A stretch of 14,285 nt of DNA from Bdellovibrionia bacterium. Its GTDB lineage: Bacteria; Bdellovibrionota; UBA1018. The notes under the pieces were generated by a model. That model saw only the letters and a list, made by a program, of their open reading frames with translations. It was not told the origin of the DNA and did not search any database. The translations under genes were made by a program, and so were the position numbers. This document shows positions 79-14,285 of the stretch, piece by piece. Position 1 is the stretch's first letter; each line of letters begins with the position of its first letter. The stretch lies in the NCBI GenBank assembly GCA_049424145.1, contig JBMSSC010000071.1, forward strand, positions 1 through 14,285, given 5' to 3'.

Positions 79-597
79 TTAGATCGTGTCTTGAGAAGGA
101 GCGGAAGTCTGGTCGCCAGCTGGCTCAAGGGTGAGGATGGAGAGGCCGGTTTCAAAGCCGAATCCTAAGGAGCCAGAGACGCCGAGAGAAAGTCTCACGC
201 CGTTCATTGGATTTTGGAAGTTCGAGCTCACGCCAGCGCCCAAGATCACAGCAGCTTGAACGTCAGTGGTCACGTAGTGGCCATAGAGGTCTTCCAGGCT
301 GCCATTGAAGCCGAAGCTGCTTGAGAGGCCGTAGACGTGCAAGTAGCCAGCGCCCACGCGTGCAGAAACGGGGTGACCGCCAATGGTCACGTTGACAGCG
401 CGTTGGCTTTCGTTGCCGTGAACGTCTTTGCAGGTCACCATGCCGGTGCCGCTGAGTTTGAAGTAACCGAGGCCGACTTGGAGTCCTCCGCCTTTTACAT
501 CATAAGCTAAACCGCAGGTGTAAGTGTGAGCCAGAGCAGGTGTGGTTGCACCGAGGGCAGCTAGCAAACCTAAAGCAGGAAGTAAAAACTTTCTCAT
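79..597 (-). CDS. Secreted Gly-rich beta-strand protein, possibly DUF992-like
   Basis: Strong RBS (AAGGAG, 6 nt before ATG) and a Sec signal peptide MRKFLLPALGLLAALGATTPALA|H. The mature part has two Cys and alternating Gly/hydrophobic strands (GGGLQVGLG, LYGHY...AAVILGAG, GSLGFGFETG). The gene has its own terminator. Family resemblance is by eye only (about 0.35). Confidence 0.85.
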   Translation of the reverse strand: MRKFLLPALGLLAALGATTPALAHTYTCGLAYDVKGGGLQVGLGYFKLSGTGMVTCKDVHGNESQRAVNVTIGGHPVSARVGAGYLHVYGLSSSFGFNGSLEDLYGHYVTTDVQAAVILGAGVSSNFQNPMNGVRLSLGVSGSLGFGFETGLSILTLEPAGDQTSAPSQDTI

Positions 598-816: not shown

Positions 817-1686
817 TTACGAATTTTTGCAAATTGAAACATAGAAGTCTAAAATTCGATAGATTTGAGTCGTAAATAATCGGTCTCTCCAACGAATTTG
901 ACCTAAAAAACTAGGGTAAAAAGCAGTTGTTTTTTGATTCAAACTGAGCTTCACTTCTAGTTCTAAGAGGTCGACGCTTAAGCCTAGATCTAAGGCTTTG
1001 AGTAAGGCCTCTTTAGCAGTCCAGATCGCATAAAAAAGTGAAGGATCCGTTCGAATTTGGGCTTTCTCATGCTCAGTTAGCGCGATTGAAATTAAGTCCG
1101 AGTCAAGCGGGAGTTTGATTTTCTCAAGGTCGATTCCAATTTTTGGCTGAAGCCATCTGTGTTTACGTTCATCTCGAGTGTTCGATTGCTTGAGGCTTGG
1201 TTTTTTTTGGCAGGAGAGAAGTGCTGCGCAAGCCCATTCATTGGAATGAGAGATAGAAAGATCATTAAAAAATAGAGATAATATAGAATTGAAATTGGAC
1301 CTTTTATCTGGGTTGAGTTGAGCTTGAGGTCTTCCACTCGGTGAGTTGATGATTTCAAAGGAATGAAGGCAATCCTGCAGCAAAGAATCAGTTCTGGGGC
1401 AGTCAATAAAGAAAGTAAAAGCAGAGTGGTTCACCCATTGAAGTACGACTTTCTTTGCCGCAATTCGTCCGGCAAGCCATTCGTTTTGTCTTTTTTTTGT
1501 TTTCAGTCGATAAAAGAGATCCAGCTCGCGCGGGCTGAGCGAAAACCAGCTCAGGGTCTTCGAGCGCATCAGCTCATTGAGATCTGCTGGAATAGGAGTG
1601 AACGCCCATTCGAGGTAAGTGTTAGGTTCTAGGTCATGAAACTCAGGTTTAAATCCACTGACAGCTGGAGAATCCACAGTCCACAT
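817..1686 (-). CDS. Sfp-type 4'-phosphopantetheinyl transferase
   Basis: Motifs EWLAGRIAAKK, SGRP, SISHS, IGIDLE and FYAIWTAKEALLKALDLGL. The track ORF starts at 1842, 194 nt inside the ER gene. The ATG at 1686 (289 aa) or the GTG at 1677 is more plausible; the start is uncertain. Confidence 0.92.
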   Translation of the reverse strand: MWTVDSPAVSGFKPEFHDLEPNTYLEWAFTPIPADLNELMRSKTLSWFSLSPRELDLFYRLKTKKRQNEWLAGRIAAKKVVLQWVNHSAFTFFIDCPRTDSLLQDCLHSFEIINSPSGRPQAQLNPDKRSNFNSILSLFFNDLSISHSNEWACAALLSCQKKPSLKQSNTRDERKHRWLQPKIGIDLEKIKLPLDSDLISIALTEHEKAQIRTDPSLFYAIWTAKEALLKALDLGLSVDLLELEVKLSLNQKTTAFYPSFLGQIRWRDRLFTTQIYRILDFYVSICKNS

Positions 1687-2554
1687 AGAGGGTTTGACCC
1701 GTGATTTTTTTCGATCGATCGCTGCATAAAAATACGATCGTGTCGGCAACGTCCTGAGCTGTGATGGATTCCTGAATGGCGCTTTTGGACGCAAAGGCGG
1801 CTTGGATTTTTGTCCAGCAGGCTTTGGCAAATTGGAGCTCATCGGTTTCTTGTCCTAGTTCTTGTTCGACTTGTCTTAGGATTTCTAGAAGTTGTGGATC
1901 GGCCTGGAGGCGGAGGGCTTGTGGGTCACGCTTAAGTGCAATAATTTCCGAGAGCGAAGCGAGGGTTTCAATTGGGCCCGCTGAAACGGCATTGATCCGA
2001 ACCTTGTTTTCTCGTCCAAGCTCGAGGGCGAGGAGTTTAACGAGGCTCTCCAAAGCTGCTTTAGCCACTCCCATCATGCCATAAAGGGGCATGGCTCGCT
2101 GTGAGGCCTGAAAGGTGAGGGTAACAATACTCGATCGGGGCCTCAAGTAGGGACGAGCAAATCGAACGAGCTTGGCAAGAGAATGGGTGGAGAGCTCCAG
2201 GGTTTCGGTGAAGTCAGTTGAGCTCACCTCCGAGGCTGCGCAGGTGAAAAGGCTAGAAGGAGCATAGGCAATGGAGTGAATCAGTAGATCGAGGCCATCC
2301 TCTTGAAAGCGCCAGAAGAAGTCCTCAAGCTCATCTGGATTTAAGACATCACACCGTTGTGCTTGAACTCCGGGATACTTCTCCAACAGAGGGCTGATGC
2401 GGCTTAAGAACTTGTGCTGATAGCCAAGGGTGACTTGCGCGCCTGCTTGGTGAAGGCTCTGAGCAATCGCCCAAGCGATGCTTTGGTGATCAGCCACACC
2501 CAGCACGGCTGCTTTTTTTCCAAGTAGAGGAAGGTTCTCATTTGAGTGGTTCAT
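1649..2554 (-). CDS. fabI: FabI/InhA-type enoyl-ACP reductase (SDR) with extended substrate-binding loop
   Basis: GKKAAVLGVADHQSIAWAIA, LIHSIAYAP, catalytic Y158-xx-M-xxx-K165 (YGMMGVAK), RINAVSAGPIETLA and ITGQTLYVDCG. ATGA start/stop overlap with the upstream gene and a GGAG RBS. Confidence 0.9.
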   Translation of the reverse strand: MNHSNENLPLLGKKAAVLGVADHQSIAWAIAQSLHQAGAQVTLGYQHKFLSRISPLLEKYPGVQAQRCDVLNPDELEDFFWRFQEDGLDLLIHSIAYAPSSLFTCAASEVSSTDFTETLELSTHSLAKLVRFARPYLRPRSSIVTLTFQASQRAMPLYGMMGVAKAALESLVKLLALELGRENKVRINAVSAGPIETLASLSEIIALKRDPQALRLQADPQLLEILRQVEQELGQETDELQFAKACWTKIQAAFASKSAIQESITAQDVADTIVFLCSDRSKKITGQTLYVDCGFSSCQWI

Positions 2555-5500
2555 GTCAGAAGGCTCCGAAATGGGATCATTTTTAAGTCTGAAATTTCAG
2601 TGTGAAGCAGGAGATGATGAGGTGAGATCTGTGAAGGATCTGAAAACGGCGTTTTGGACTGATAGAGAAGGAGGTGAAACAAGCCAGGGGATGGGGTTCT
2701 TGCATGAAGGAGAAAAGGTCCTGTTCCTAAGCGTTCAGAAGCAGCCCCGGCTATGACCTTGAGTCTCCCAAGAGAGTGGGGAATGAGCGACTCTCCCTCT
2801 GTCTGACTATGAAGCCACGAGCAGAGGTGAAAGCCTGCTTCGTATGCCCAAGGCTCTGAGTGGTAGAGGTGTGCATCCGGCAGATGAACCAGTTGAGCGT
2901 GAGCCCAAGCTTCGGTTCGGTTCAGAGGTCGAATGGATCGTAAAACCTGAAACCTGGGGCCTAAGGGTATTTGAAGGCGCTCAGCACCGTAAATGGTTGA
3001 ACGCAGCCAATCCGATGACGAACGCATCCCTTCGGGTAAACGGGGAGACTCGCCCGGGCATTCTGGGGCCTGGCCTAAATCCACTTGGGCTTCAAACAGG
3101 GGGGTGAGCTGGGTCTTTTGCTGCACGAATAACTCCACTCGAACCGAGCGCAGGTGAGGTTGAAGGCCAAAAGACGCCTGAGCTTTAATAAAAACTTCGA
3201 CTGAGTGTTGATCGGGAATCTCTAGGCTTTGGAAAATTCTAAAATTTCTCACTCCAAGATACGGATGCTCGGGCAAAATAGCGCGTGCGGCTTGCACCAT
3301 CATTTCCAGTGCAAACGTAGCAGGCAAGAGCAGAACCTGGGAGAATCGATGATCTTCAAGCCAGGGGAGCTCGCCTACGCTGATGGAAGTGCAGGCGTGG
3401 AGGGAGGATCCAGGGTAGAAACGGTGGATTTTTTGAAGAAAGCAGAATGAATCCAAGACGTAGGAATCCTGGAATGCTGGATGGCTTGGTGCTTCTTGCT
3501 TAGGACCAATGCTTTGAGTCTCTCGTTGAATGGTGAGCCCAAGAGCGGGGTTCTCAGGAGTCTTAGATTCAGCGCCCTTCAGGGGAAGAGGAATGGGATC
3601 CTGCTTCTTTTTTTCAATCACCACTTCGCCTGCTTCTCGTCCATAAAGAACCTCCTCGAAAAAAGCCTGTACGCCCTCTGCAGGATTCAGTGGCTCAGCC
3701 TCAGTGCCGCGGATGAGTTCAGCCACTCCGCTGCGGGCTGCCATTCCCACCTCATCCCAAGCACCCCAGGAAAGAGCCAGCCATCGCGTCTCGGGATAGC
3801 GGTGGCCCAGATCCTCAAGAAGGCTCACTGACGCAGCATTAGCAGCAGCGTAGTCACATTGCCCTGGGTTGCCAAAAGTCCCCGCCACGGAACTAAAGAC
3901 ACAAAAAAGTTTTGCCTTTTTCTTGCCTCCCCATTCCCCGAGGTGCTTCAACCCTTGTACTTTGCTTTGGTAAACGCGTAAGAAGGAATCGAAGGTTTTT
4001 TTTTCAAACCTCTGGTCTTCGAGAATTCCTGCGGCATGGATCACCAGGTCGATGGACTCGGGATCGAGTCGTTCTGCTGTCTTGTTCCAGCATTCGTTTT
4101 GCGAGAGGTCACAGCTGATGTATTGAACCTGAGCTCCCGCCTTGAGCAAGGATTCGAGTTTGAGGATCACCTGAGGGTCACTGGCTGGGGTTCTCCCCAG
4201 GAGAATGATTCGCAGGTCGGGTGCGTGTTGAGTCAGAGCAAGAGCAATCTTGTGTCCCAATCCTCCTAATCCTCCTGAGATCAATACCGTACTTCTGGAG
4301 GTGATCTCAAAAGACGCAGAGAGGGAAAAATCAATCTCACTGGGGTGAAGCGTGGGAGTGAGAAATTCGGTCGGAGCCCCTCCGTCCGTGATCATGCGGA
4401 CTTCGGAAACACTTCCTCCAGTCAGGAGCTTCTTCAGTAGGGTAGGAATCGCCTCTGAGGAAGGCTGCAGCGCTTTTTGTTCTTCGACTTCAGCGCGGAG
4501 TTCTCGTTGCTCGATCCAGATGAACTGAGAAGTGGGGAATTCCCATCGGAGCGTTCTGAGTAGACCTTGGGTTGCTCCTGCGAGCTCAGTCATTGCCGAG
4601 AAATTCGGTGAGCCGAGAGGGGGAGTTTTTAAGATGACGGCCACCTGGGCTTGACCTTGGATTTCCTTTAATCGTCTGCTGAGCTCATGAAAGAGCGTGT
4701 CTAAAATGGATTGGGCATGAAGGAGGCCAGTGGCTGGGGGCTCGCAGAGAAAGACCAGTCTTGAGCTCGGGTGTGGTTTAAGAGCTGAGTCATCTTCTGC
4801 TGTTGGAATTTCCGAGGAAGCAGTGGGATGAAAGAAATTCACCGCTGCAAGCTGTCGCGTGAGGTGTTCGGTCCATGGGCTTAAGGCGCAAGTCAACGGG
4901 ATCACACCACCTAAGTAGGGTTCGACTAACGGGATTTCTCCTCGGCTTTGAAGGGGAGTGTCCCAGGTGCCTCTCAGTGATGACCAACAGACGATGGCTC
5001 GTTTTTTTTGGGCCCGCTTTTTCTCCTCTCGGGGAGCGAGGCTCCCTTTTTCAATGAATCGCACCCAATGTCCAAGCGTAGGGAAATCCTTAATACGGAG
5101 GCCAGATTCAAACTGGAGAGCAAAGTACTTTCTTAACTGACCTGCAATCTGTGCTTGCTTAATGGTGTCAATCCCCAGGTCGGCCTCCAGGTCGGCATCC
5201 CGTTGTAACAGATTCAGGTCGTAGCCCGTGTGCGCTTGAGTGATTAAGCAAATCAAATGGAAGATCTCTTCAGCGGTGTAGACCTTTCCTGGTACTGGCT
5301 CAGGGAGGCAGACTCCGCCTAAGACAGAGGAGGAAGAAAGACCTGAGAAGAGGCTGAAGGAGGCTTGGGGGCGTTCGATTCTTCTTTGAGCTAAACGAGG
5401 GAAAAATCCCTCGAGGGTTTCGAGGAACTCGTTGAGAGTCTTTGCTTTTTCTAGAGCACTTGCTAGCTCGGAGAACGAGGGTTGCATCCAGCGGTGGAGT

Positions 5501-5772
5501 GAGGTTTGAGCTTCCAAATGCGAGAGGAAGCGCGCTAGAACCTTTCTTCGTTGAATGGAGCTCACGCCCAGGTCCTCTTTTAGGCCAAGCGGTCCTAAGA
5601 GATTTTCTCGGCCATATCCAGTCACTTCCGCTAGGGCTAACAGCAGGAGTTCTTGAAAACCCATGGGAGGATCCCCGGGATGGGTCGTGGTGCAGCGCTG
5701 GGAATCAGTCCATGCTTCCTCTGCAACACGGGATTTGATGAGGCGAGGCGAGTGATCAAGGCTAGGTTGCAC
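2551..5772 (-). CDS. Iterative PKS/FAS subunit B: ACP-ACP-KR-DH (PfaA C-terminal-like)
   Basis: ACP1 (TGY...EDLGVSSI) and ACP2 (TGY...LEADLGIDTIKQ). KR: ISGGLGGLG, HAAGILED, SSVAGTFGNPGQCDYAAAN, WGAWDEVGM. DH: WLEDHRFSQVLLLP, GPRFQ. GTG start with AAGGA RBS 6 nt upstream, overlapping the upstream gene by 11 nt. An alternative ATG lies at 5664. Confidence 0.9.
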   Translation of the reverse strand: MQPSLDHSPRLIKSRVAEEAWTDSQRCTTTHPGDPPMGFQELLLLALAEVTGYGRENLLGPLGLKEDLGVSSIQRRKVLARFLSHLEAQTSLHRWMQPSFSELASALEKAKTLNEFLETLEGFFPRLAQRRIERPQASFSLFSGLSSSSVLGGVCLPEPVPGKVYTAEEIFHLICLITQAHTGYDLNLLQRDADLEADLGIDTIKQAQIAGQLRKYFALQFESGLRIKDFPTLGHWVRFIEKGSLAPREEKKRAQKKRAIVCWSSLRGTWDTPLQSRGEIPLVEPYLGGVIPLTCALSPWTEHLTRQLAAVNFFHPTASSEIPTAEDDSALKPHPSSRLVFLCEPPATGLLHAQSILDTLFHELSRRLKEIQGQAQVAVILKTPPLGSPNFSAMTELAGATQGLLRTLRWEFPTSQFIWIEQRELRAEVEEQKALQPSSEAIPTLLKKLLTGGSVSEVRMITDGGAPTEFLTPTLHPSEIDFSLSASFEITSRSTVLISGGLGGLGHKIALALTQHAPDLRIILLGRTPASDPQVILKLESLLKAGAQVQYISCDLSQNECWNKTAERLDPESIDLVIHAAGILEDQRFEKKTFDSFLRVYQSKVQGLKHLGEWGGKKKAKLFCVFSSVAGTFGNPGQCDYAAANAASVSLLEDLGHRYPETRWLALSWGAWDEVGMAARSGVAELIRGTEAEPLNPAEGVQAFFEEVLYGREAGEVVIEKKKQDPIPLPLKGAESKTPENPALGLTIQRETQSIGPKQEAPSHPAFQDSYVLDSFCFLQKIHRFYPGSSLHACTSISVGELPWLEDHRFSQVLLLPATFALEMMVQAARAILPEHPYLGVRNFRIFQSLEIPDQHSVEVFIKAQASFGLQPHLRSVRVELFVQQKTQLTPLFEAQVDLGQAPECPGESPRLPEGMRSSSDWLRSTIYGAERLQIPLGPRFQVLRSIRPLNRTEAWAHAQLVHLPDAHLYHSEPWAYEAGFHLCSWLHSQTEGESLIPHSLGRLKVIAGAASERLGTGPFLLHARTPSPGLFHLLLYQSKTPFSDPSQISPHHLLLHTEISDLKMIPFRSLLT

Positions 5773-8700
5773 GGTCGATCCTTGTGGAAAGCGTTCTTAA
5801 GGAGTCCATCCCACTGTCTGAGACAAAAGAGTGATGGGGTTTTGATTCTAAAATTTTCTCGGTAAATCGCGTGAGAATGGACTTGGGTCCGACCTCAACC
5901 CAGATGCGGACGCCCTGATGGAAGAGGGACTCGATGCATTGGGTCCAATTCATGGGGCTTCCGATTTGATTCACGAGGTTTTGACGGACCTCCGAACTGA
6001 GAGAGGAGGATTGGCGGTAGTCCAACTGAGTGAGGTTGCTCATGACGGAAACCCGAGGCGAAGTGATGGGGAGTTGGTCAAAAGCCATTCGGGCTTGGTC
6101 TTCTCCAAGGGCTTTGGCTAAGGGAGAGTGCCAGGCAACGTGGATACCCAGAGGCTCGGAGTCAATTTTGTGTTGGGAGAATAGAAGCCTGAGCGGGGTG
6201 ATGAGCTCAGTGGGAGCTGCGATCACGGTTTGGGTTGAGCAGTTTTTCACGGCCAGGGTGGTCTGAGCGCTCAGGGGTTGAGACCCTTGCAGAATCGCTT
6301 GCGTCTGAGGAGCTGAGCAGAAAACAGCCATCATCCGGCCCGTGTCGCGTCCTTGGTTTTGGTGGGATTTAAAAATCCATCCCCGCTGGTAAGTGGCCAC
6401 TAACGCCTCTTCAAAGGGCATCATCCCTCCTGCGACGCATGCGGCAAATTCTCCTACGCTGTGGCCTAAGTACACATCGCCTGATACGCCCAGTTCGCGA
6501 AGGAGACGGTAGTAGGCCAGGTTGAATGTCAGCAGAACCGGTTGAACCATATGAGTCTCGAGCAAATTCTTCTGAACCGATTCGCGCGAGCTCCACGAAG
6601 TGAAAACTAGTTTCTCCACGGTTTGACCCAGCAGAGGTTCAAGCACTGAGTTGGCCTCTTGGATCGTTCGGCGAAAGACAGGGAATCGCTCATAGAAGGC
6701 TCGACCCATGTCGGGATAAGGGGAGCCGTGTCCGGGGAATAAAAAGGCAATCCTGGGTTTTCTTCGGTGAGTTTTCCGGCGCGATGGACTGAAGTGTGGC
6801 TGGATGGGTTTTTCTCCAACAATCAGGCTCCAGTTGGTTCCCCCGAAGCCAAACGCGTGGACCGCAGCCTGGCGATTGCTTCCCTGATGGCCCGGAGCCC
6901 AAGGGATGAGGTTCTGTGCCACCTCTAAACCTCGTGCCTCGAGCTGAAGTGCAGGGTGGACTGCGTTTTCTACTCTCATGGGAGGGATTTGTTTTTTCTT
7001 TAGGCCTAAGATCACTTTCAGCAGAGCCACGGCCCCTGCAGCCCCGAGCGTATGACCCACCTGGGATTTTACGGATCCAATGAGTAACGGAGGGGAGGAC
7101 CTTGGGCCATACACTTCTGAAAGAGCGCTGAGCTCGATGGAATCCCCTACAGGCGTTCCCGTTGCGTGGCACTCCACGTATTGAATCTGATCGGCTGATC
7201 CTTGAGCGCTCTCCAAAGCGCGTCTCATGGCTAAGGTTTGCCCGAAAACATCGGGTGCCATCATGGAGTGACCCCTGCCGTCGCTGGAGGCTCCGATGCC
7301 GAGAAGAACGGCGTGTACAGGGTCCCCATCTAAAAGCGCATCATCGAGTCGTTTTAGAATCAAAGTGGCCGTTGCTTCGCCCAGTAATATCCCATTGGCT
7401 TGCGTGTCAAAGGGTCTGCTTCCATCGGGCGACAGAGCATGGCATTGAGAGAATAAAATCTGAGTTCCTGGCGTGAGGCTGACGCCTGCTCCCCCGGCCA
7501 GGATCACGCGATGTTTTCTCATTTGTAAGCTGTGCATGGCTGCTCCGATGGCGGCTAGAGAAGAAGCACAGGCTGCATCGAGCGTGGAAAAGGAGCCCTT
7601 TTGAAGATCGAGAGTTTTTGCCACTCGGGCTACGACGGAGTGGAATTGAAGAGACGCTAAGGATTCCTCTGAGGGAAATAGGGACTTGAGTCCCAGTTGG
7701 GAAATGAGACTTTGAAACAAGGCCTCCTTCTCCGTAATGGAGATGACTTTCACTTGAGGAAGATAAAATTCGAGTCGAAACAGGAGGATCTGAAGGGAAA
7801 GCATCCAGCCTGCTTGATTGCAGCTTTTGGACTCCCCAATGAGGATTTCATCGATGGGAAGGGTGCTGAGTTCGGGGCTAGATCCAGGAGGGAGCCCGAA
7901 TGGGTTTTTCGACGTCCCTAAGCCCCAGTGCTTAAGGCTCTGGAGGGTGGAGTCCAGAAATTGCCGTTGTATGGGATCGAGAATGCTTAGAACCGATGGC
8001 GGGATTCCTAGCCCAAGCTCCGGTAGAGTGGGAGTCCAGGTGAGTGCCGCTTGATCGGCTCGGGAGAGTGCCAGGTTCGTGGGTGCGTTGGGGTGCTTCT
8101 GGGAGTGAACAAAGAGCTCTTTGTGTTCTGCGTAAAAAGAGTCTGAAAGCGGTGCGATGAAGGACTTTTGAGATACGAGGTTCTCCCAGAAGTTCTCGGG
8201 ATTTGAGCTTCCGGGAAGATTGGCGCCATATCCGATAACAGCAATGGGAGTTGGTTTTTGTTTGGGTCGCTGTTCTAAGCTGCTCCAGCGATTCTTCAGG
8301 ACAAAATTTTTGGGGTTCCATTTTTCAATAATCAGATGGTAGGCCGATCCCCATCCTCCAAAACTGCTCAGGGCAGCTTGAATAGGCTTGTCAGGGCTCT
8401 CACCATGAGATCGGGGATGATCGGTGACCCAGGAAAACGGCAGCGGTGAAGCTGGGGGGAGTTCTGGAAACCACACGTCTTGATTGAATGCCAAGAGCAC
8501 CTTGGCTAAAGAGGCCGCTGCGTGGGCTCCTGCCATAAAGCCGTGTTGACTCGCCAGGTGTCCAAGCTGAAGGTCCGGGTGTTTGCCGTACACCGATTCA
8601 AGTGCTTGCCGTTCTGCCTGATCCTCCCAGGGGACTCCAGATCCTTGGGTCTCCAGATGATGAATCTGCTGGGGATCGCTTTGGGCTTGATGAAGAGCCG

Positions 8701-10966
8701 ACTGCATGGCTGAAATTAACGCTTGCGGGGAGGTCTCTTCAATTCCAAAGCTTCGCCCTGAGCTGCTTTGACCGAGGCCTCGGATCAATCCCCAAATGGG
8801 ATCTCCTGCTTGTAAGGCTGAGGAGAGTTTTTTTAAGACAAACAGTCCGCATCCTTCAGAGGGAAGAATCCCTGAGCCTGAAAATGGAGAGTTCGGAGCG
8901 CCGCCCAATCGCTCCTCTAAAAAGAGGAGAAACCAATCTAACGGGTCAATGAGGGTGTGGGCTCCTCCGGTGATGACGGCCTCAGCCCCGTCCGTGCGAA
9001 GTAGCGTGATGGCGTGATCCAAGGCCGCCAATGTGGAGGAGTGTCCGGAGTTCACCACGTAGCTTGGCCCGTGAAAATCAAAGTGACTCATCACGCGACC
9101 GACAGCGACATTGAGGAGCCCTCCTGCAAGCGAGTCCTCCGTGCAGGCGATGGAGGGAGGGGCCATCAGTTGATCGAGGTGAGAAAGCTCCTCGGGGGAG
9201 AATCTTGGGAGACCCAAAGAGGATTGGGATTTGAGCAGGGATCCAATGAGTCGGAAGCCCAGTTGCTGATTTTGCAGATCGTCGACTTGCAAAAACGATT
9301 GACTGCAGCCTAAGACGAAGGCGGTTTTTAGCGGGGGGAGGCCCGAGGGAGGGATATCACTGAGGGCCTGATGAGCAGTGAGCAAAACGAGTTTTTGAAT
9401 TCGATCCATGGCCTGAACGGTCAGAGGAGGAATCTTAAAGATTTCAGGATCCAAGTTGAGGGGATCGAGAAATCCTCCCCACTTCATGGGGCGCGCGGGG
9501 GTGGGACCGATCTTGGATTTTTCGAATCCCATGCGATCGAAGAACGCCTGCTCCCAATCTTTCCAGGCGTGAGGCGAGAGGGTGCGACGGGCGGAACGGA
9601 GGTTCTGCTCAAAGGCCCTTAGGTTTAAAGCTTGTGGAAACCTGCCTCCGAGTCCAACAATCGCAATGGGCTCGTTCTTGGGCTCTGGGGCTGACCTCGG
9701 GGCGCGTGACCCGTTTGAACTGACTTTGGAGGCGGCAAGGGGGGGAGGCAGGGGAGGGGCAAACGGGCAAGAGCCCAGCGGGGGGCGGGGTTCTTTCAAT
9801 CTCCCCCATTGCGTTCGAATACAAAAATCCACCAAAACGGGGAGTGAATCCCGGATATTCGGAACCTCTAGTCCTGAGTCTTTTAAAGCCTCCCTGAGTT
9901 GTGAGTTGTCGTAGACGTAGGGATCAAACGCATAAGGAAGCAGTCGCATGAAGACCTGCCAGGATTCCCGCAAAATCGGATCCGCTTGAGCTAGGCTTGC
10001 TTTGAATTCCTCGGGCTTCACATCGGGAATCTCTTGCCACTCGGGTTGAGGTGGGACTTGAAGTCGAGATCTTTGGGCGTGGGCTTGAAAAACTTGAGCG
10101 CAGCGGCTGAGCCCCTCTTGAAGCCGGGTGGCTTGGTGGCCTGAGGTGAGGTGGTAGATCTGAAATCCCGGGTGCACGGGGCGTGTCCGCAAAACGAACA
10201 GGGCGTTAGTCACCCAATCCACGGTGACTGCATCAATTCGACTGCCTTGCGGTAAAACAATGGGATTGATCTTGCCCACAACCTCATAGAGGAAGAAGCG
10301 GACTCCGAGATAAAAGCTATCGAGTTTGGGCGTCCATCCGGTTTTTGAGTCTCCTCCGACCATCGATGCGCGATAAATGACGACGGGGATGAAGTGGCTT
10401 TGTTCGATGAGAACCGCTTCAGCTTCTACTTTGGTTTGTTCATAGGTGTTTTTAAACTCACGTGGAAATGTTGGAGGCAGTTCTTGAGCCTGTCCAGAAG
10501 GATCGATGGGTGCGACTGTGAATGTGCTTAAGTAGTGAAAACCGAGGAAAGATCCACTCTGCTGAGCGGCTTTTGCAAGTTCACAGAGGTTTTTAGTCGA
10601 GAGCACTTGGGAAATTCGTGCTTGATCGAGGGGTTGATCGAATCGAACGTCGGCAGCCAAATGGTAGATTGCTGAGACCTTGCGAGCTAAAGTCTCATAA
10701 TCGGCCTCTGATAGACCTAAATGGGGGTCTTTGAGGTCGCAGGCAAGAAAGCTCAGTCGATTCAGCACGGGTTTGGGATCGGAAAGCTCACGAAAGAGTT
10801 CTTGAGCGAGGGTATCAAATTTCTGGGCAGCAGTTTGGCTTTGACCCTGAGTCCCATCGCGAATGAGAAGAATCACTTGGCAATGGGGATCCCAAAGGAG
10901 GAGTCTTCTTAAGAATTCGCTTCCAATAAATCCTGTGGCTCCAGTGATGAGAACGCAATGCTGCAT
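5762..10966 (-). CDS. Iterative PKS/FAS subunit A: thioester reductase - inactive KS - KS - AT
   Basis: N-terminal extended SDR (ITGATGFIG, HLAADVRF, YLST, YEQTK, YRASMVGGDSKTG) and a Pro-rich linker. KS1 lacks the catalytic triad. KS2 has DAAC(1133), HATGT(1267), KSQVGH(1305) and AFGFGGTN. AT has FPGHGS, GHSVG(S1503) and AWHS. AGGA RBS 7 nt before the ATG. Confidence 0.93.
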   Translation of the reverse strand: MQHCVLITGATGFIGSEFLRRLLLWDPHCQVILLIRDGTQGQSQTAAQKFDTLAQELFRELSDPKPVLNRLSFLACDLKDPHLGLSEADYETLARKVSAIYHLAADVRFDQPLDQARISQVLSTKNLCELAKAAQQSGSFLGFHYLSTFTVAPIDPSGQAQELPPTFPREFKNTYEQTKVEAEAVLIEQSHFIPVVIYRASMVGGDSKTGWTPKLDSFYLGVRFFLYEVVGKINPIVLPQGSRIDAVTVDWVTNALFVLRTRPVHPGFQIYHLTSGHQATRLQEGLSRCAQVFQAHAQRSRLQVPPQPEWQEIPDVKPEEFKASLAQADPILRESWQVFMRLLPYAFDPYVYDNSQLREALKDSGLEVPNIRDSLPVLVDFCIRTQWGRLKEPRPPLGSCPFAPPLPPPLAASKVSSNGSRAPRSAPEPKNEPIAIVGLGGRFPQALNLRAFEQNLRSARRTLSPHAWKDWEQAFFDRMGFEKSKIGPTPARPMKWGGFLDPLNLDPEIFKIPPLTVQAMDRIQKLVLLTAHQALSDIPPSGLPPLKTAFVLGCSQSFLQVDDLQNQQLGFRLIGSLLKSQSSLGLPRFSPEELSHLDQLMAPPSIACTEDSLAGGLLNVAVGRVMSHFDFHGPSYVVNSGHSSTLAALDHAITLLRTDGAEAVITGGAHTLIDPLDWFLLFLEERLGGAPNSPFSGSGILPSEGCGLFVLKKLSSALQAGDPIWGLIRGLGQSSSGRSFGIEETSPQALISAMQSALHQAQSDPQQIHHLETQGSGVPWEDQAERQALESVYGKHPDLQLGHLASQHGFMAGAHAAASLAKVLLAFNQDVWFPELPPASPLPFSWVTDHPRSHGESPDKPIQAALSSFGGWGSAYHLIIEKWNPKNFVLKNRWSSLEQRPKQKPTPIAVIGYGANLPGSSNPENFWENLVSQKSFIAPLSDSFYAEHKELFVHSQKHPNAPTNLALSRADQAALTWTPTLPELGLGIPPSVLSILDPIQRQFLDSTLQSLKHWGLGTSKNPFGLPPGSSPELSTLPIDEILIGESKSCNQAGWMLSLQILLFRLEFYLPQVKVISITEKEALFQSLISQLGLKSLFPSEESLASLQFHSVVARVAKTLDLQKGSFSTLDAACASSLAAIGAAMHSLQMRKHRVILAGGAGVSLTPGTQILFSQCHALSPDGSRPFDTQANGILLGEATATLILKRLDDALLDGDPVHAVLLGIGASSDGRGHSMMAPDVFGQTLAMRRALESAQGSADQIQYVECHATGTPVGDSIELSALSEVYGPRSSPPLLIGSVKSQVGHTLGAAGAVALLKVILGLKKKQIPPMRVENAVHPALQLEARGLEVAQNLIPWAPGHQGSNRQAAVHAFGFGGTNWSLIVGEKPIQPHFSPSRRKTHRRKPRIAFLFPGHGSPYPDMGRAFYERFPVFRRTIQEANSVLEPLLGQTVEKLVFTSWSSRESVQKNLLETHMVQPVLLTFNLAYYRLLRELGVSGDVYLGHSVGEFAACVAGGMMPFEEALVATYQRGWIFKSHQNQGRDTGRMMAVFCSAPQTQAILQGSQPLSAQTTLAVKNCSTQTVIAAPTELITPLRLLFSQHKIDSEPLGIHVAWHSPLAKALGEDQARMAFDQLPITSPRVSVMSNLTQLDYRQSSSLSSEVRQNLVNQIGSPMNWTQCIESLFHQGVRIWVEVGPKSILTRFTEKILESKPHHSFVSDSGMDSLRTLSTRIDRAT
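5800..6751 (-). other. Domain: acyltransferase, probably malonyl-CoA:ACP
   Basis: IAFLFPGHGS, GHSVGE, conserved Arg in YQRG, VAWHS (AFHS-like) and WVEVGP. Boundaries approximate. Confidence 0.88.
6812..8251 (-). other. Domain: active ketosynthase
   Basis: Intact Cys-His-His triad in DAACASS, ECHATGTPVGD and GSVKSQVGH. Boundaries approximate. Confidence 0.9.
8321..9673 (-). other. Domain: degenerate ketosynthase (KS0 / chain-length-factor-like)
   Basis: Begins EPIAIVGLGGRFP and retains MDRIQ, EGCG and SFGGWG. The active-site motifs read NSGHSS, ETQGSG and ASQHGF. Boundaries approximate. Confidence 0.85.
9790..10966 (-). other. Domain: N-terminal thioester/fatty-acyl reductase (NAD_binding_4 / FAR-like extended SDR)
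   Basis: TGATGFIG Rossmann motif, DL..P.LGLS...Y..L, ST catalytic pair, Y175-EQT-K179 (10430-10444). Boundaries approximate. Confidence 0.85.
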
Positions 10967-11054
10967 GGCTGAGTCCTGCTTGGTTGCTCACCATCGCACA
11001 AAATGCGGGAGCTCGCAATTTGACTTCACTTGAAAAAAACGAGAGTCTGAACTC
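10967..11054. promoter_or_regulatory. 88-bp divergent promoter region between the PKS operon and the lgt-like gene
   Basis: Head-to-head starts at 10966 (-) and 11055 (+). No clean sigma70 -35/-10 pair was identified. Confidence 0.5.
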
Positions 11055-11885
11055 ATGCGTGCAATTCTTTTTGTGATCGCGGGTCGCCCTGTGATTAGTT
11101 GGGCATTCTTTGCTGTTGTGGGGATGTGGGCCGCCTTTTTTAAGATTCAAGCAGAGCTCAGACGAAAAGGAATCTCTGACCTTCGTTTGATGGCCCTATT
11201 TTTAAGTGGCACCGTGGCGTGGTTTTTGGGCGCACGCCTGGCGCAGGGGCTGACCGTCGATCCGTCGTTTTCAATCAACCAGTTTTCTCTCTGGTGGAGA
11301 GCATCCACAGGCTATGTTTTGTATGGTGGGGTATTGGGTGTCTTCCTGGTGGGGTGGGTGTTTTGGTGGTTTTTGGGCTTAAAACGGGCATTATCTTTAA
11401 GTGAGTTTTGGGACTTTGGAGCCGCAGCCTTAGGGTGGGCTCTATTTTGGGGGCGGATTGGGTGTGGATTTTACGGGTGCTGCTATGGAACACCGGCAGG
11501 GCCTTGGCCTGGTTATGAGCTGCGTCCTGAGTATTGGGATTTTCAGAACCGTGAGTTTCCCTGGACTCTTCAAGGAGTGAGGCTTCATCCCACTCCTTTT
11601 TACGAAGCGCTGGGGATTTTTCTTTGTCTCGTGATCATCAGTCGTCTTCAACGCTGGGGAAGGGGGCAAGTCCGGCTCGTGCCGCCCGGGGTTTCTGGAT
11701 GGCTGTTTTGGTTTTTGTATGGCGTGCTTCGATTTTTTTTGGAATGGATTCGATTAGATCTCAGGGGCATTGGATTTGCTGGGCTTTCACCCAGTCAATG
11801 GGTTTCGATCGGGCTCATGGGGATTGCGCCGGGTTTGATGGTTTTTGAGTGGTATCGAAATCAGGTTTCCACAGAGGGCCGTTGA
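11055..11885 (+). CDS. lgt: Prolipoprotein diacylglyceryl transferase (Lgt)-family membrane protein
   Basis: Multiple hydrophobic helices. Motifs GARL, LYGG, WD..A......WGRIGCGFYGCCYG, HPTPFYE, YGVLRFFLEWIR.D and LSPSQWVS. Possibly a divergent paralogue. Confidence 0.85.
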   Translation: MRAILFVIAGRPVISWAFFAVVGMWAAFFKIQAELRRKGISDLRLMALFLSGTVAWFLGARLAQGLTVDPSFSINQFSLWWRASTGYVLYGGVLGVFLVGWVFWWFLGLKRALSLSEFWDFGAAALGWALFWGRIGCGFYGCCYGTPAGPWPGYELRPEYWDFQNREFPWTLQGVRLHPTPFYEALGIFLCLVIISRLQRWGRGQVRLVPPGVSGWLFWFLYGVLRFFLEWIRLDLRGIGFAGLSPSQWVSIGLMGIAPGLMVFEWYRNQVSTEGR

Positions 11886-12738
11886 GCCTTGGCGCTGATG
11901 CCTGGGGTTTTGCCTCCTTCCGCACGATTAGGCGATAGGTGAGTCGGTGGGAGAAGATCTCGTGGAGGAGTGAGTCAAGAAGCAGTCCTGCCAACACGTC
12001 AAACAGGGAGTGTTGCTTGAGGGTGAGCGTGGAGAAGCAAATGAGCACGCACCAGAGAATCATCAGGGGAAAGTAGGGTTTTTGATCCTCCCTAAAGCCT
12101 AAGGCGATTTGAAAAGCGAGGCTCACATGAAGGCTGGGCAGACAGTTCATGGGTCGATCCAGTTGCCAGAGTCCATTGACCATTTTTTTAGTCCACAGGG
12201 ATCCAAGTGTGAAAAGGCTCCAAGGATTTTGGGGATCAGGTGAGATCTGAGAGAGAAACTCCTCTCGCGGATAAGTCGTGGGATAAACCCAAAAAATGAA
12301 GCAACTGCAGATCACTAAGGTTGCGAAAGAGTAAAGATGGATGTGCAGACTCACTAAGCAGCGATTCAGAGCAAATGCCGTGAGCACGAGCAGGAGCTCG
12401 CTGTCATAAATCCAAACCGACTCTGGGATGAAAGGAATTCTTTGATCCAGCTTGCCCAGAAAAACGGGATGAGGCGTTTTTTCAATGCCATGATTTGTGG
12501 CAAGATATGCGCTCAAGCCAAGAGCTAGTAATGTGGGTCCTGCGATCCATTTGTACTGCCAAGGGATCCAAAGAGGCAGCAGTCCGTCCTCGTGAATTCG
12601 ATCCCAGAGAAAAATGGGAGGAGATTTACCGTTTTCTTGGCGTGGTGAGATCGGATTTTTTTTCGTTTTGTTTTTTGTCTTGGATGACCGGTGGAGTCTT
12701 TTTTGATCCAGGAAACTCAAGGACCTCAGTAGTGCCAT
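11815..12738 (-). CDS. PAP2-superfamily membrane enzyme, Aur1/inositol-phosphorylceramide-synthase-like
   Basis: LDQRIPF...WIY, YPTTYPR, D.PMNCLPSLH (C2) and STLTLKQHSLFDVLAG (C3 His/Asp), with several TM segments. GGAGG RBS 9 nt before the ATG at 12738. Confidence 0.82.
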   Translation of the reverse strand: MALLRSLSFLDQKRLHRSSKTKNKTKKNPISPRQENGKSPPIFLWDRIHEDGLLPLWIPWQYKWIAGPTLLALGLSAYLATNHGIEKTPHPVFLGKLDQRIPFIPESVWIYDSELLLVLTAFALNRCLVSLHIHLYSFATLVICSCFIFWVYPTTYPREEFLSQISPDPQNPWSLFTLGSLWTKKMVNGLWQLDRPMNCLPSLHVSLAFQIALGFREDQKPYFPLMILWCVLICFSTLTLKQHSLFDVLAGLLLDSLLHEIFSHRLTYRLIVRKEAKPQASAPRLNGPLWKPDFDTTQKPSNPAQSP

Positions 12739-13339
12739 TGCCTTTGACCTCCGTCTCAGGCGAAGTTGTAGAGGGGGAGGGATCAGGGATCAAGCGATTT
12801 TTTTTTGGCTTTTCAAATTCGATTTCTTTAGGAATTTGACTTCCATCTAAGATGGTTTCAGCTCGAGGAGACTGAGGAAGTCGGGGGGGTGATTTTTTTG
12901 TCTGAGTCTCGGTGTCTTGTGGATCGGGCTGATTCAAAGAATCAGCACTTGAACCTTTTGAGCCGGCTTCAGGCTGGCTCCCCATCAAACCCAAAAGCGA
13001 TTTGGGGATAAATTCTCGAGAGAGGCTTTTAAAAATGGTTGATGCGATATCGCTTTGAGCTTGGCGATAAAATTGGGTGTATTTTTCATTCATCGAGCTG
13101 GCGTAGTTGAGAATTGCAGGTTCCAATAGCGTCTTTTTGAGTTGATTGATCTTTTCAGGCGTTCTCGAATCCCCAAGCTTGTTGAGTTCCGAGTAGTACT
13201 GATGGAAGGCTTGGTCTCTTGCTTTTAGGGCCTCAGTTGCCGATCGGGCGTGGGCAATTTCTAGGTCAAACAAGACACAGAGGATGCCTGAGCTGACTAA
13301 GGCGAAGACTTTGAGTAAGAAACGAAGGTAAAAAGACAT
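12626..13339 (-). CDS. Hypothetical exported protein with helical N-domain and low-complexity P/S/K/T-rich tail
   Basis: 237-aa ORF with an N-terminal hydrophobic stretch ending AHA, an amphipathic helical segment and a disordered-looking C-terminal half. It starts at an AT-rich intergenic region. Confidence 0.7.
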   Translation of the reverse strand: MSFYLRFLLKVFALVSSGILCVLFDLEIAHARSATEALKARDQAFHQYYSELNKLGDSRTPEKINQLKKTLLEPAILNYASSMNEKYTQFYRQAQSDIASTIFKSLSREFIPKSLLGLMGSQPEAGSKGSSADSLNQPDPQDTETQTKKSPPRLPQSPRAETILDGSQIPKEIEFEKPKKNRLIPDPSPSTTSPETEVKGNGTTEVLEFPGSKKTPPVIQDKKQNEKKSDLTTPRKR

Positions 13340-13417
13340 AAGTATTCGGTTTATTCTGTTTCGCTAGATTCTTCTTTTTATTATTTTAATATAGTGTATT
13401 ATAAATGTATAGTTTAT
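13340..13417. promoter_or_regulatory. Very AT-rich divergent promoter region
   Basis: 78-bp AT-rich gap between head-to-head ORFs, with several TATAAT-like hexamers on both strands. Confidence 0.5.
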
Positions 13418-14285
13418 ATGTTGAAATTACTTTTTTTATTCCTTTTGATAGGCTCTGAGAAAGTGGTCTTAGCTCAAGCTCCGGTTGGATCAGCCGGAGG
13501 AAGTTCTTTAGGAAGTCCTACGCAGTCTGAGTCGATTGTTCCGGGTTCGTTTGTTCAGGCACCCTGCCTGGACTTAGATGAGAAGCAAGCTTTGTCGCCT
13601 CCTTTGTCCGCTCTTTTTATTCCCAAATGTTCGGAGTTTTTGAACAATCAGACCAAGGATGGATTTTTGAGTCGCTATAGTCAGTTCTTTCGCGAGCGAA
13701 TCCAATGTTTTTATGAGGGGACGATTATTGAACTCTCTAAAGATGTGACTCTGATTTCGGGCCCTCAGAGCTGCTCACTGGGGAAGCCAATCTACCCTCC
13801 TCCTCTACCTAAGGCTGTGGTTTGTTCCATTGCTGATGGAGAGGGAGATCGTTTAGGGTCTTCATCGGGAGCAACCACCCCGAACTCCTTAAAGGAATCC
13901 TGTGGTGTTCTTGCTGACAGCTCGGGCCAGTGGGAGCGAGCACAGGAATTGGGTCTTGAGGTTCAAGCAACGAAGTTTTATAGAAACCAGCTCATCCAAG
14001 AGCTGCTGACTCGTAAGAGTTTTCAGCTCACCTCAGCCATGTGTCAATCCCAAGCCGACGATTACAGTCGTCTGTGGTTAGAAACCAAGGATCTGGTTCA
14101 AAAGAGCTTATTGAAGTTCTCCTCTGATCAGTTTGAAGCCTTTCGACAGTCGAAGTCCAATCTGTGTGCTGTGGAGTCGATTCAGCTGAAAAATGGAGCG
14201 GTTGCACCTCCGAGTCAAGCCTCTTGTTACTTAAAAAGTCTGATGGATCGGCTGGCTTTGGTTTTTTTCTACCTAGTTGAGTGTG
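13418..14285 (+). CDS. Secreted Cys-rich hypothetical protein (partial, runs off window)
   Basis: Manual translation from the ATG at 13418 gives MLKLLFLFLLIGSEKVVLA|QAPVGSAGG..., open for 289 codons to the window end, with 10 Cys. Absent from the ORF track because there is no stop in the window. Confidence 0.8.
   Translation, partial: MLKLLFLFLLIGSEKVVLAQAPVGSAGGSSLGSPTQSESIVPGSFVQAPCLDLDEKQALSPPLSALFIPKCSEFLNNQTKDGFLSRYSQFFRERIQCFYEGTIIELSKDVTLISGPQSCSLGKPIYPPPLPKAVVCSIADGEGDRLGSSSGATTPNSLKESCGVLADSSGQWERAQELGLEVQATKFYRNQLIQELLTRKSFQLTSAMCQSQADDYSRLWLETKDLVQKSLLKFSSDQFEAFRQSKSNLCAVESIQLKNGAVAPPSQASCYLKSLMDRLALVFFYLVEC

Follow-up and report, generated by a model that had tools for sequence, protein, structure and literature searches.

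A candidate lipid-biosynthesis module in a Bdellovibrionia genome: an iterative synthase with an N-terminal reductase, an Lgt paralogue and a PAP2_3 enzyme

Although secondary lipid synthases occur widely, products are known for only a handful of them (PMC13291983). The Pfa synthases PfaA-E and the secondary lipid synthases described by Shulse and Allen in 2011 served as our comparison set (PMC3098273). Two Pfa-like systems, the heterocyst glycolipid (Hgl) and zeamine (Zmn) synthases, release their chains through a thioester reductase to give a fatty alcohol, a diol or an amino alcohol (PMC3098273, PMC13291983). In this study, we have analyzed a 14,285-bp stretch of DNA (the window), which is the whole of contig C71 in a metagenome-assembled genome (MAG) of a Bdellovibrionia bacterium (G000; 2.69 Mb, 193 contigs, 95% complete). 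The window carries six genes that, from their content and distribution, form a predicted, patchily distributed lipid-biosynthesis module. A minus-strand block of four encodes reductase (R), ketosynthase (KS; KS0 where the catalytic Cys is missing), acyltransferase (AT), acyl carrier protein (ACP), ketoreductase (KR) and dehydratase (DH) domains, an enoyl reductase (ER) and a phosphopantetheinyl transferase (PPTase); beside it lie an Lgt-like gene on the plus strand and a PAP2_3 gene on the minus strand. The best explanation, toward which we lean with modest confidence, is that a long-chain alcohol or diol is synthesized here, freed by reduction and then turned into a new lipid by the two membrane enzymes. 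The genes and domains are as follows (ORF, open reading frame; PKS, polyketide synthase; SDR, short-chain dehydrogenase/reductase).

817..1842, minus strand: Sfp-type PPTase (PF01648, 55.2 bits, plus an N-terminal ACPS-like stretch); longest ORF 341 aa
1649..2554, minus strand: FabI-type SDR, putative trans-acting ER, 301 aa (PF13561, 200.9 bits, E 2.9e-59; Y-x6-K)
2551..5772, minus strand: P0002, 1073 aa, ACP-like stretch, ACP (Thr203), KR and PKS-type DH (Pfam, alignment A2, motif scan, PigH alignment)
P0002 residues 183-240, minus strand: PP-binding domain (Pfam, 22 bits, cut-off 20.8)
5164-5166, minus strand: Thr203 codon of P0002, motif DLGIDT(203)IKQAQ
P0002 residues 495-673, minus strand: KR (Pfam)
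P0002 residues 795-1010, minus strand: PKS-type DH (PF21089, PF14765)
5762..10966, minus strand: P0001, 1734 aa, R-KS0-KS-AT (Pfam, NCBIfam, translation, alignment A1, catalytic triads)
9797-10966 (approximate), minus strand: R domain of P0001 (NAD_binding_4, PF07993, residues 7-255, 169 bits, E 1.2e-49)
Between R and KS0 of P0001, minus strand: Pro-rich linker (translation)
8312-9691 (approximate), minus strand: KS0, His642 in the catalytic Cys position
6782-8266 (approximate), minus strand: second KS, Cys1133/His1267/His1305
5792-6754 (approximate), minus strand: AT, residues 1408-1709, GHSVGE motif
10967..11054: 88-nt intergenic region between the divergent synthase and Lgt-like genes; no promoter match above chance
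11055..11885, plus strand: Lgt paralogue P0123, 276 aa (PF01790, 96.9 bits)
11815..12738, minus strand: PAP2_3 membrane phosphotransferase/phosphatase, ORF 307 aa (PF14378, 41 bits, cut-off 27)

A first-pass annotation of this DNA had reported four overlapping genes on one strand with two membrane enzymes adjacent to them, and the coordinates and the Pfam and NCBIfam assignments bear this out. The synthase genes overlap by 11 nt, 4 nt and 194 nt. The last overlap, between the FabI-like and PPTase genes, would be 38 nt with translation of the PPTase beginning from the ATG at 1686. This is the likely start and would give a 289-aa protein; the PPTases of locus L036 and genome G006 have 224 aa.

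Relationship to described lipid synthases

In the broad sense, the window cluster is a Pfa-like secondary lipid synthase. It shares with those systems the iterative type I KS, AT, ACP, KR and DH domains, a KS accompanied by a KS-like domain that lacks the Cys, a neighboring gene for an Sfp-type PPTase, the presence of a type II fatty acid synthase alongside and a patchy distribution like that left by horizontal transfer. However, it departs from the Pfa type in several respects. Pfa synthases have FabA-type dehydratase/isomerase domains and a PfaD-type ER, whereas the window DH is of the PKS type, with no FabA-type DH, and the ER is of the SDR FabI type (PF13561). The Cys-less KS comes first rather than second, a reductase is fused N-terminally, and a single Thr carrier stands in place of the tandem Ser-ACPs (DSIKRVEI type) of Pfa. 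Against TIGR02813 (PfaA), P0001 and P0002 scored 401 and 126.5 bits, respectively, the cut-off being 1010.1. By its NCBIfam scores and its types of DH, ER and ACP, we place the cluster outside the Pfa family.

A functional parallel exists with Hgl and Zmn. In these systems, the reductase stands alone or follows the ACP and the ER is PfaD-like, whereas the window reductase lies N-terminal to KS0; no Lgt-like or PAP2_3 partner has been described for either. By analogy, the window cluster may operate as a secondary lipid synthase with reductive termination, in the manner of Hgl and Zmn. The window's domain order is not among the cluster types in the section of PMC3098273 consulted, and neither a FabI-type ER nor an Lgt partner is described in the passages of PMC3098273 and PMC13291983 consulted. 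Our literature search, which lay outside subscription journals and approximately 1.7 million PMC articles, found no Lgt-like gene with a PKS and no characterized cluster with this domain order, in agreement with the first-pass annotation, to which no system of this architecture was known.

The synthase and its threonine carrier

As read from its sequence, the synthase is an iterative type I system of two proteins, predicted to be cytoplasmic. Its domains are one active KS and a KS0, an AT, a KR, a DH of the PKS type and a single carrier, and it has its own FabI-type ER and its own PPTase, both acting in trans. The domain set is complete, as expected of the self-contained reducing synthase with reductive release that had been proposed. 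Pfam and NCBIfam domain calls revealed no thioesterase among the cluster genes of the window, and the N-terminal R domain is the only release activity visible in the synthase. It carries an NAD(P) motif (TGATGFIGS) and Y-x3-K, the TGxxGxxG/YxxxK pattern of thioester reductases, and scores below the TIGR01746 cut-off (124.2 versus 213.35 bits). The nearest solved structure for R is that of MxaA, an alcohol-forming reductase (4U7W, E 1.9e-21); for KS-AT it is CurL. Both motifs are common to MxaA-type terminal reductases and fatty acyl reductases; unlike MxaA-type domains, however, the window R is N-terminal and would have to act in trans on the carrier of another polypeptide. The second KS has a Cys-His-His triad in all six reductase-type proteins, and KS0 lacks the Cys in the same six; the first KS of the window protein, in which His642 occupies the catalytic Cys position, is inactive as judged from its sequence.

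In P0002, the His and Pro of the HxxxGxxxxP-like motif of the DH are invariant (alignment A2). The carrier attachment residue is Thr203, not Ser, and it aligns onto the Ser of the PigH carrier domains. Where "ACP-ACP" had been annotated, Pfam recognizes a single carrier domain and does not detect the ACP-like stretch upstream. The motif of that stretch is DLGVSSI, and the Ser-Ser pair of the window is Asp-Pro in L036 and Asp-Arg in L037; since neither locus has a Ser there, alignment A2 suggests that the stretch is probably no carrier.

Threonine at the carrier site recurs well beyond this locus. The reductase-type clade is accompanied by five ACP-KR-DH genes, of which two encode Thr (window, L036) and three encode Ser (L037, L038, G407). 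In FabI-associated loci, 12 of 15 true ACP motifs have Thr (the motif scan gave 13, one of which, a chance motif in L010, was excluded), as do all 13 ACP motifs of the Poseidoniales loci; Thr was found further in L008, L020, L025, L026, L027 and L044. The remaining loci gave 111 Ser motifs, mostly of the DSIKRVEI kind. The clade with Thr carriers includes the window, L006, L007, L008, L010, L018, L020, L025-L027, L044, L012-L014, L016 and L019. The motif of the Thr clade is DLG[IV]DT[IV]KQA[QE]; tandem arrays of 3 to 7 ACPs occur, and a few members have Ser instead. The interchange of Ser and Thr at one hydroxyl position, recurring in tandem ACPs, argues for a functional residue rather than a local defect. 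The literature search, within the reach given above, found no mention of a Thr carrier site or of its motif strings. If Thr carriers are functional, the rule for carrier-protein priming would need widening, and for a clade with members in MAGs labeled, among others, Acidobacteriota, Actinomycetota, Deltaproteobacteria and Poseidoniales archaea.

In the FabI-like protein, some 45 aa are inserted behind residue 200, and its best PDB matches are all FabI. It falls below every NCBIfam FabI equivalog cut-off (best, 195.3 versus 391) and is therefore not the housekeeping enzyme; the housekeeping FabI, encoded on contig C83, is 39% identical to it. Its identity to the FabI-like genes of L006, L007, L010, L018, L036, L037, L038 and L127 is 47 to 58%. 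The cluster proteins of the window, L036, L037, L006, L010 and L127 share a two-stretch Pfam match that the insert interrupts near residue 200; for the FabI of Poseidoniales, the match runs from end to end with no insert. The PPTase has the ACPS-superfamily domain pair of the Sfp type and is encoded beside a carrier; a separate AcpS-type gene lies on C130. Elsewhere in the genome are second copies of FabF, FabD, canonical Lgt, FabI and AcpS.

The membrane enzymes and their conservation with the reductase

The Lgt-like gene is on the opposite strand to the synthase, divergent from it over 88 nt and convergent with the PAP2_3 gene. Its product belongs to the same Pfam family as E. coli Lgt (5AZB), is modeled with the same fold and keeps the Arg, Tyr, Glu and His residues conserved in canonical Lgts; in alignment A3 it has all the residues invariant in canonical Lgts (R134, G136, C137, G141-C143, G145, H178, Y183, R226, E230, R233 and D235). 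The AlphaFold model (pLDDT, the predicted local distance difference test, 83.5) has 5AZB as its sole match at E <= 0.001 (E 3.8e-8, template modeling score 0.67); phmmer against PDB sequences gave nothing at E <= 1. Because the canonical invariants are retained and the model has the Lgt fold, the paralogue looks active. However, it is below the equivalog cut-offs (TIGR00544, 48.7 versus 118.9; NF000778, 84.3 versus 334), and its N-terminal segment differs from those of canonical Lgts, as does the periplasmic loop after GCCYG, which is longer and distinct. The canonical Lgt of this genome is on C1 (206 bits), and a canonical Lgt (172 to 206 bits) accompanies the paralogue (71 to 99 bits) in each of G000, G006 and G407. 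Unlike canonical Lgt, then, the paralogue is a second copy in three of three genomes and is genetically tied to a reductase or PKS; by equivalog score, and with the canonical copy separate, we predict that it is not the ordinary lipoprotein-modifying Lgt of the cell. The subfamily is tiny, with five close members before a drop to E 9e-19, and a scan of 401 genomes from the phylum found it at E <= 1e-25 in two, G000 and G006.

The PAP2_3 protein has PSLH and H-x3-D motifs, which we take to be the catalytic His motifs of the family. Its ORF is probably over-extended at the 5' end, with the true start later, since close homologues have 236 to 255 aa. It also belongs to a small subfamily: seven homologues reach E <= 6e-18, and the weaker matches are generic PAP2 proteins. 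The PF14378 match and the His motifs are shared with Aur1/inositol phosphorylceramide (IPC) synthase-like PAP2_3 proteins; unlike in the IPC synthase setting, no ceramide pathway was seen in the window. Pfam and the Atlas name the protein generically, an Atlas search gave only generic PAP2 clusters, and the one specific label, "inositol phosphorylceramide synthase," belongs to a distant Pseudomonas match.

Both genes travel with the reductase. When nine window proteins were compared with 115 fetched loci by tblastn, the Lgt-like protein matched only in the window's own locus (L001), L005 and L039, all of which have an N-terminal reductase; in L005 and L039, as in the window, the Lgt-like gene is divergent from the synthase gene. 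It adjoins the reductase in all four loci in which that side is visible (window, G407/L005, L039 and G006), PAP2_3 was found in the three loci in which a search was possible, and both are absent from about 100 reductase-less relatives. In G407, which holds L005 and has 75% GC, one contig carries the Lgt-like gene and then R-KS0-KS-AT; a second begins inside the ACP-KR-DH gene and continues with FabI-like (55% identity) and PAP2_3 (34%) genes, followed by unrelated genes. G006, from another genus of the same family, has no PKS. Its gene order is orf297 homologue, orf237 homologue, PPTase, Lgt-like (47%), radical SAM/SPASM, NAD_binding_4 reductase, PAP2_3 (35%), AhpC and HD, in which the Lgt-like, PPTase, stand-alone reductase and PAP2_3 genes lie within 4.4 kb (8873-13251 of L120, G006:C3:62000-81999); there is no space between the members for a carrier-protein gene. 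L037 has AhpC and HD genes downstream of its FabI, as in G006, and so lies in the same genomic neighborhood.

The gene set thus recurs, despite rearrangement, in genomes of 49%, 54% and 75% GC, and this conservation across very distant genomes supports a link between the two membrane enzymes and the synthase. The G006 locus suggests a core made up of the reductase, the Lgt-like protein and PAP2_3, combined with a variable source of the chain; since the G006 module lacks a PKS, the PKS would be one of at least two chain sources and not part of the core.

The synthase itself is rare. A word-indexed search of 5.8 billion proteins, with 8000 candidates scored, yielded, among the matches listed, three full-length homologues (P0003, 46% identity; P0004, 40%; P0005, 39%) and one partial homologue, P0006. 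HMMER with residues 1-900 of P0001 against 1.84 billion representatives gave 48,839 matches at E <= 0.001, and among the best 150 of these, only five proteins span both R and KS0 (P0001, P0003, P0004, P0005 and P0302), the rest being multi-KS modular PKSs. None of 40 genomes of the same family or order has the synthase (best partial match, 2.4e-68).

To place the KS domains, we built a FastTree phylogeny of 122 KS rows from high-scoring segment pairs covering at least 380 of 495 query residues without stops, from 85 loci, together with eight domains from four proteins and the genome's own FabF as the outgroup; 19 loci that were duplicates of the window or L127, or that had been fetched for other genes, were left out. 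Supports are local FastTree values, not bootstraps, and unnamed Ser-ACP Pfa-like loci stand in for the named PfaA, PfaC, HglE and Zmn. The reductase-type KS2 domains group together with support 100 (10 rows), and their sister group (99) consists of the KS2 domains of L006, L007, L008, L010 and L018, synthases that use FabI and have no reductase; the KS0 clade (100) is sister (95) to the KS1 of the reductase-less FabI-using synthases, and the Ser-ACP Pfa-like loci fall elsewhere. These relatives, whose MAGs are labeled Acidobacteriota or Deltaproteobacteria, have a KS-KS-AT-ACPn-KR-DH synthase with a FabI-like ER and a PPTase. They share with the window the FabI-like ER with its insert (47 to 51% identity), the DLGIDTIKQAQ Thr motif and the PKS-type DH, but they have Cys-His-His in both KS domains and one to three tandem ACPs and lack the reductase, the Lgt-like protein and PAP2_3. 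Given the tree placement and the intact Cys-His-His in both KS domains of the relatives, we read the window type as a derived branch, which would have lost the Cys of KS1 and gained the reductase, the Lgt paralogue and PAP2_3.

Three further observations concern the relatives. In the Acidobacteriota cluster L010, a PlsC-type acyltransferase gene (PF01553, 23011-23733) follows the FabI-like gene, which suggests direct transfer of the chain into a glycerolipid instead of reductive release. Loci L012-L019 (for example, L014, 9141-19862), with Poseidoniales (Marine Group II archaea) labels, carry a FabI, a 3092-aa KS-AT-ACP3(Thr)-KR-DH protein and a PPTase, that is, a bacterial-style fatty-chain synthase in archaeal MAGs; a literature search on polyketide synthases and fatty acids of Poseidoniales gave a single paper (PMC8049014). 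The KS of L012, labeled "Yoonia sp.," is nearly identical to that of L013, which has Euryarchaeota/Poseidoniales labels (branch lengths, 0.0025 and 0), and the L012 contig is probably mis-binned in a Yoonia MAG.

Proposed pathway and alternative readings

We postulate that malonyl units would be extended through full KR/DH/ER cycles to a long saturated chain, which the reductase would free as an aldehyde and then as a primary alcohol; if the last beta-hydroxyl were kept, the product would be a 1,3-diol. It can be imagined that this neutral product moves to the outer face of the inner membrane, and the families of both membrane enzymes have active sites that face the periplasm. There, PAP2_3 would transfer a phospho-head-group, as IPC synthase does to the 1-OH of ceramide, a family chemistry that would suit a 1-alcohol or 1,3-diol acceptor. 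The Lgt paralogue would act with expulsion of glycerol phosphate from phosphatidylglycerol, the probable donor, or an analogue, and the joint output of the two enzymes would be a polar or ether-type lipid. Since G006 still has a stand-alone reductase, the N-terminal reductase may have arisen when PKS genes were fused behind a once stand-alone enzyme.

Several points weigh against this pathway. Both the window and L036 have Thr as the carrier residue, and attachment of phosphopantetheine to Thr is not known to be established. Few relatives exist, so the numbers for co-occurrence are low (four and three). L036, L037 and L038 are truncated at the 5' end, and any reductase, Lgt-like and PAP2 genes would lie outside the visible part. 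A fourth PAP2_3 case, the adjacency of the closest PAP2 homologue, P0249 (51% identity), to the closest synthase homologue, P0003, is inferred from the equal size of their contigs, each 6438 bp. The G407 cluster has no adjacent PPTase, the reductase/Lgt-like/PAP2 module of G006 exists without a PKS, and no RNA run is listed as containing window sequence.

The most unusual features of the cluster are the Lgt paralogue and the Thr carriers. A bolder reading, which we consider less likely than not, is an undescribed lipid class or anchor, with Thr-primed carriers, an alcohol or 1,3-diol, an IPC-synthase-like step and the first Lgt-family member outside ordinary lipoprotein maturation, which would act on a lipid acceptor or move a polyketide-derived alkyl group. 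As a compact case of four to six genes, for which comparative genomics already names the tailoring enzymes, the module offers a candidate role for a paralogue of Lgt, a family so far known only from lipoprotein maturation. One source labels the lineage Bdellovibrionales, so the lipid could be relevant to the biology of the cell envelope in these bacteria.

One alternative is that the lipid anchors a protein. PAP2_3 would make an alkyl-phosphoglycerol, a phosphatidylglycerol analogue, from the released alcohol or diol, and the Lgt paralogue would move the alkyl group to a Cys of a dedicated secreted protein, giving a new thioether anchor. Three genes for secreted proteins flank the module in the window.

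79-597, minus strand: orf172, small Gly-rich secreted protein with no family match
12626-13339, minus strand: orf237, secreted protein, in a divergent pair with orf297
13394-14284, plus strand: orf297, secreted Cys-rich protein that runs off the window and continues on contig C12 (G000:C12:15-1403)

This scheme gives each of the three enzymes a role and fits the full catalytic set and Lgt fold of the paralogue; to our knowledge, thioether formation on Cys is the only known chemistry of the Lgt family, and Cys-rich secreted proteins adjoin the module in both the window and G006. However, no lipobox was found by eye behind the signal peptides of orf172, orf237 and orf297, the orf237/orf297 pair is also present in G333 on a 14-kb contig without module genes, such neighbors were not seen in the annotated flanks of G407, and the periplasmic loop of the paralogue is unlike that of canonical Lgts. 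We consider a protein anchor unlikely. With G333 and the missing lipobox in mind, orf237 and orf297 were rejected as module members or substrates of the paralogue and are assigned to the genomic backbone.

A second alternative, which we regard as improbable, is that there is no functional link, the synthase making a reduced lipid for another use (a wax, a hydrocarbon precursor or a signal) while the Lgt-like and PAP2 genes are unrelated envelope paralogues beside it. Gene order does vary: the window has the PAP2 gene next to the Lgt-like gene, whereas in G407 it follows FabI and in G006 it lies past the reductase. The Lgt-like gene is transcribed apart from the synthase, and the PAP2 names in Pfam and the Atlas are generic. 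The reading must nevertheless accommodate the recurrence of the set in genomes of such different GC content, the absence of both genes from every fetched reductase-less relative and an Lgt-like subfamily that is so small and so rare in the phylum.

The cluster might also be decaying or inactive, which seems to us very improbable. The Cys-less KS0, the Thr at the carrier attachment site, the degenerate first ACP-like stretch missed by Pfam and the over-long PPTase ORF could each be taken as signs of decay; however, all the cluster ORFs are intact, the Cys-less KS0 is kept throughout the reductase-type proteins and the Thr is family-wide, including in the tandem ACP repeats. Strains from other studies retain the whole window. 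Near-identical DNA was found in sequencing runs X2 (30/30 bins), X4 (28/30) and X3 (19/30); run X1, possibly that of the source sample, is not independent. An 18-nt in-frame insertion at window position 3481, inside the ACP-KR-DH gene, is present in contigs of X2 and X4, from two other studies, as strain variation, and it leaves the reading frame intact.

That the contig is mis-binned or chimeric and the neighborhood an assembly artefact, as its short length (14.3 kb) in a 193-contig MAG, the GC content (52.2% for the cluster versus 49.1% for the genome) and the lack of the synthase in the 40 relatives might suggest, is rejected with near certainty, since the tetranucleotide distance between contig and genome is typical (0.0084; 144 comparison windows averaged 0.0090, and 49% of them lay at this distance or farther), synteny is seen with G006 from the same family, the contig end overlaps C12, which holds the remainder of orf297, and run contigs cover 7945-11974 (from the possibly non-independent run) and 11341-12200 (X2). 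The window DNA is real.

A few minor features of the window remain. The orf172 gene was rejected as part of the module; compared with a 172-aa ORF downstream in L036, its product has no similarity (E 0.32). Rfam gave zero matches in the window, and promoter and terminator scans were at chance (8 versus 7.5 expected and 20 versus 19.9 expected, respectively). A strong intrinsic-terminator-like hairpin, with a 13-bp stem followed by T9, lies at 24-53 on the minus strand, directly past orf172. The divergent orf297/orf237 pair is conserved in G006 and G333, and the C-terminal approximately 100 residues of orf297 recur in 27 of 61 genomes of the family, G000 included, at E <= 1e-8.

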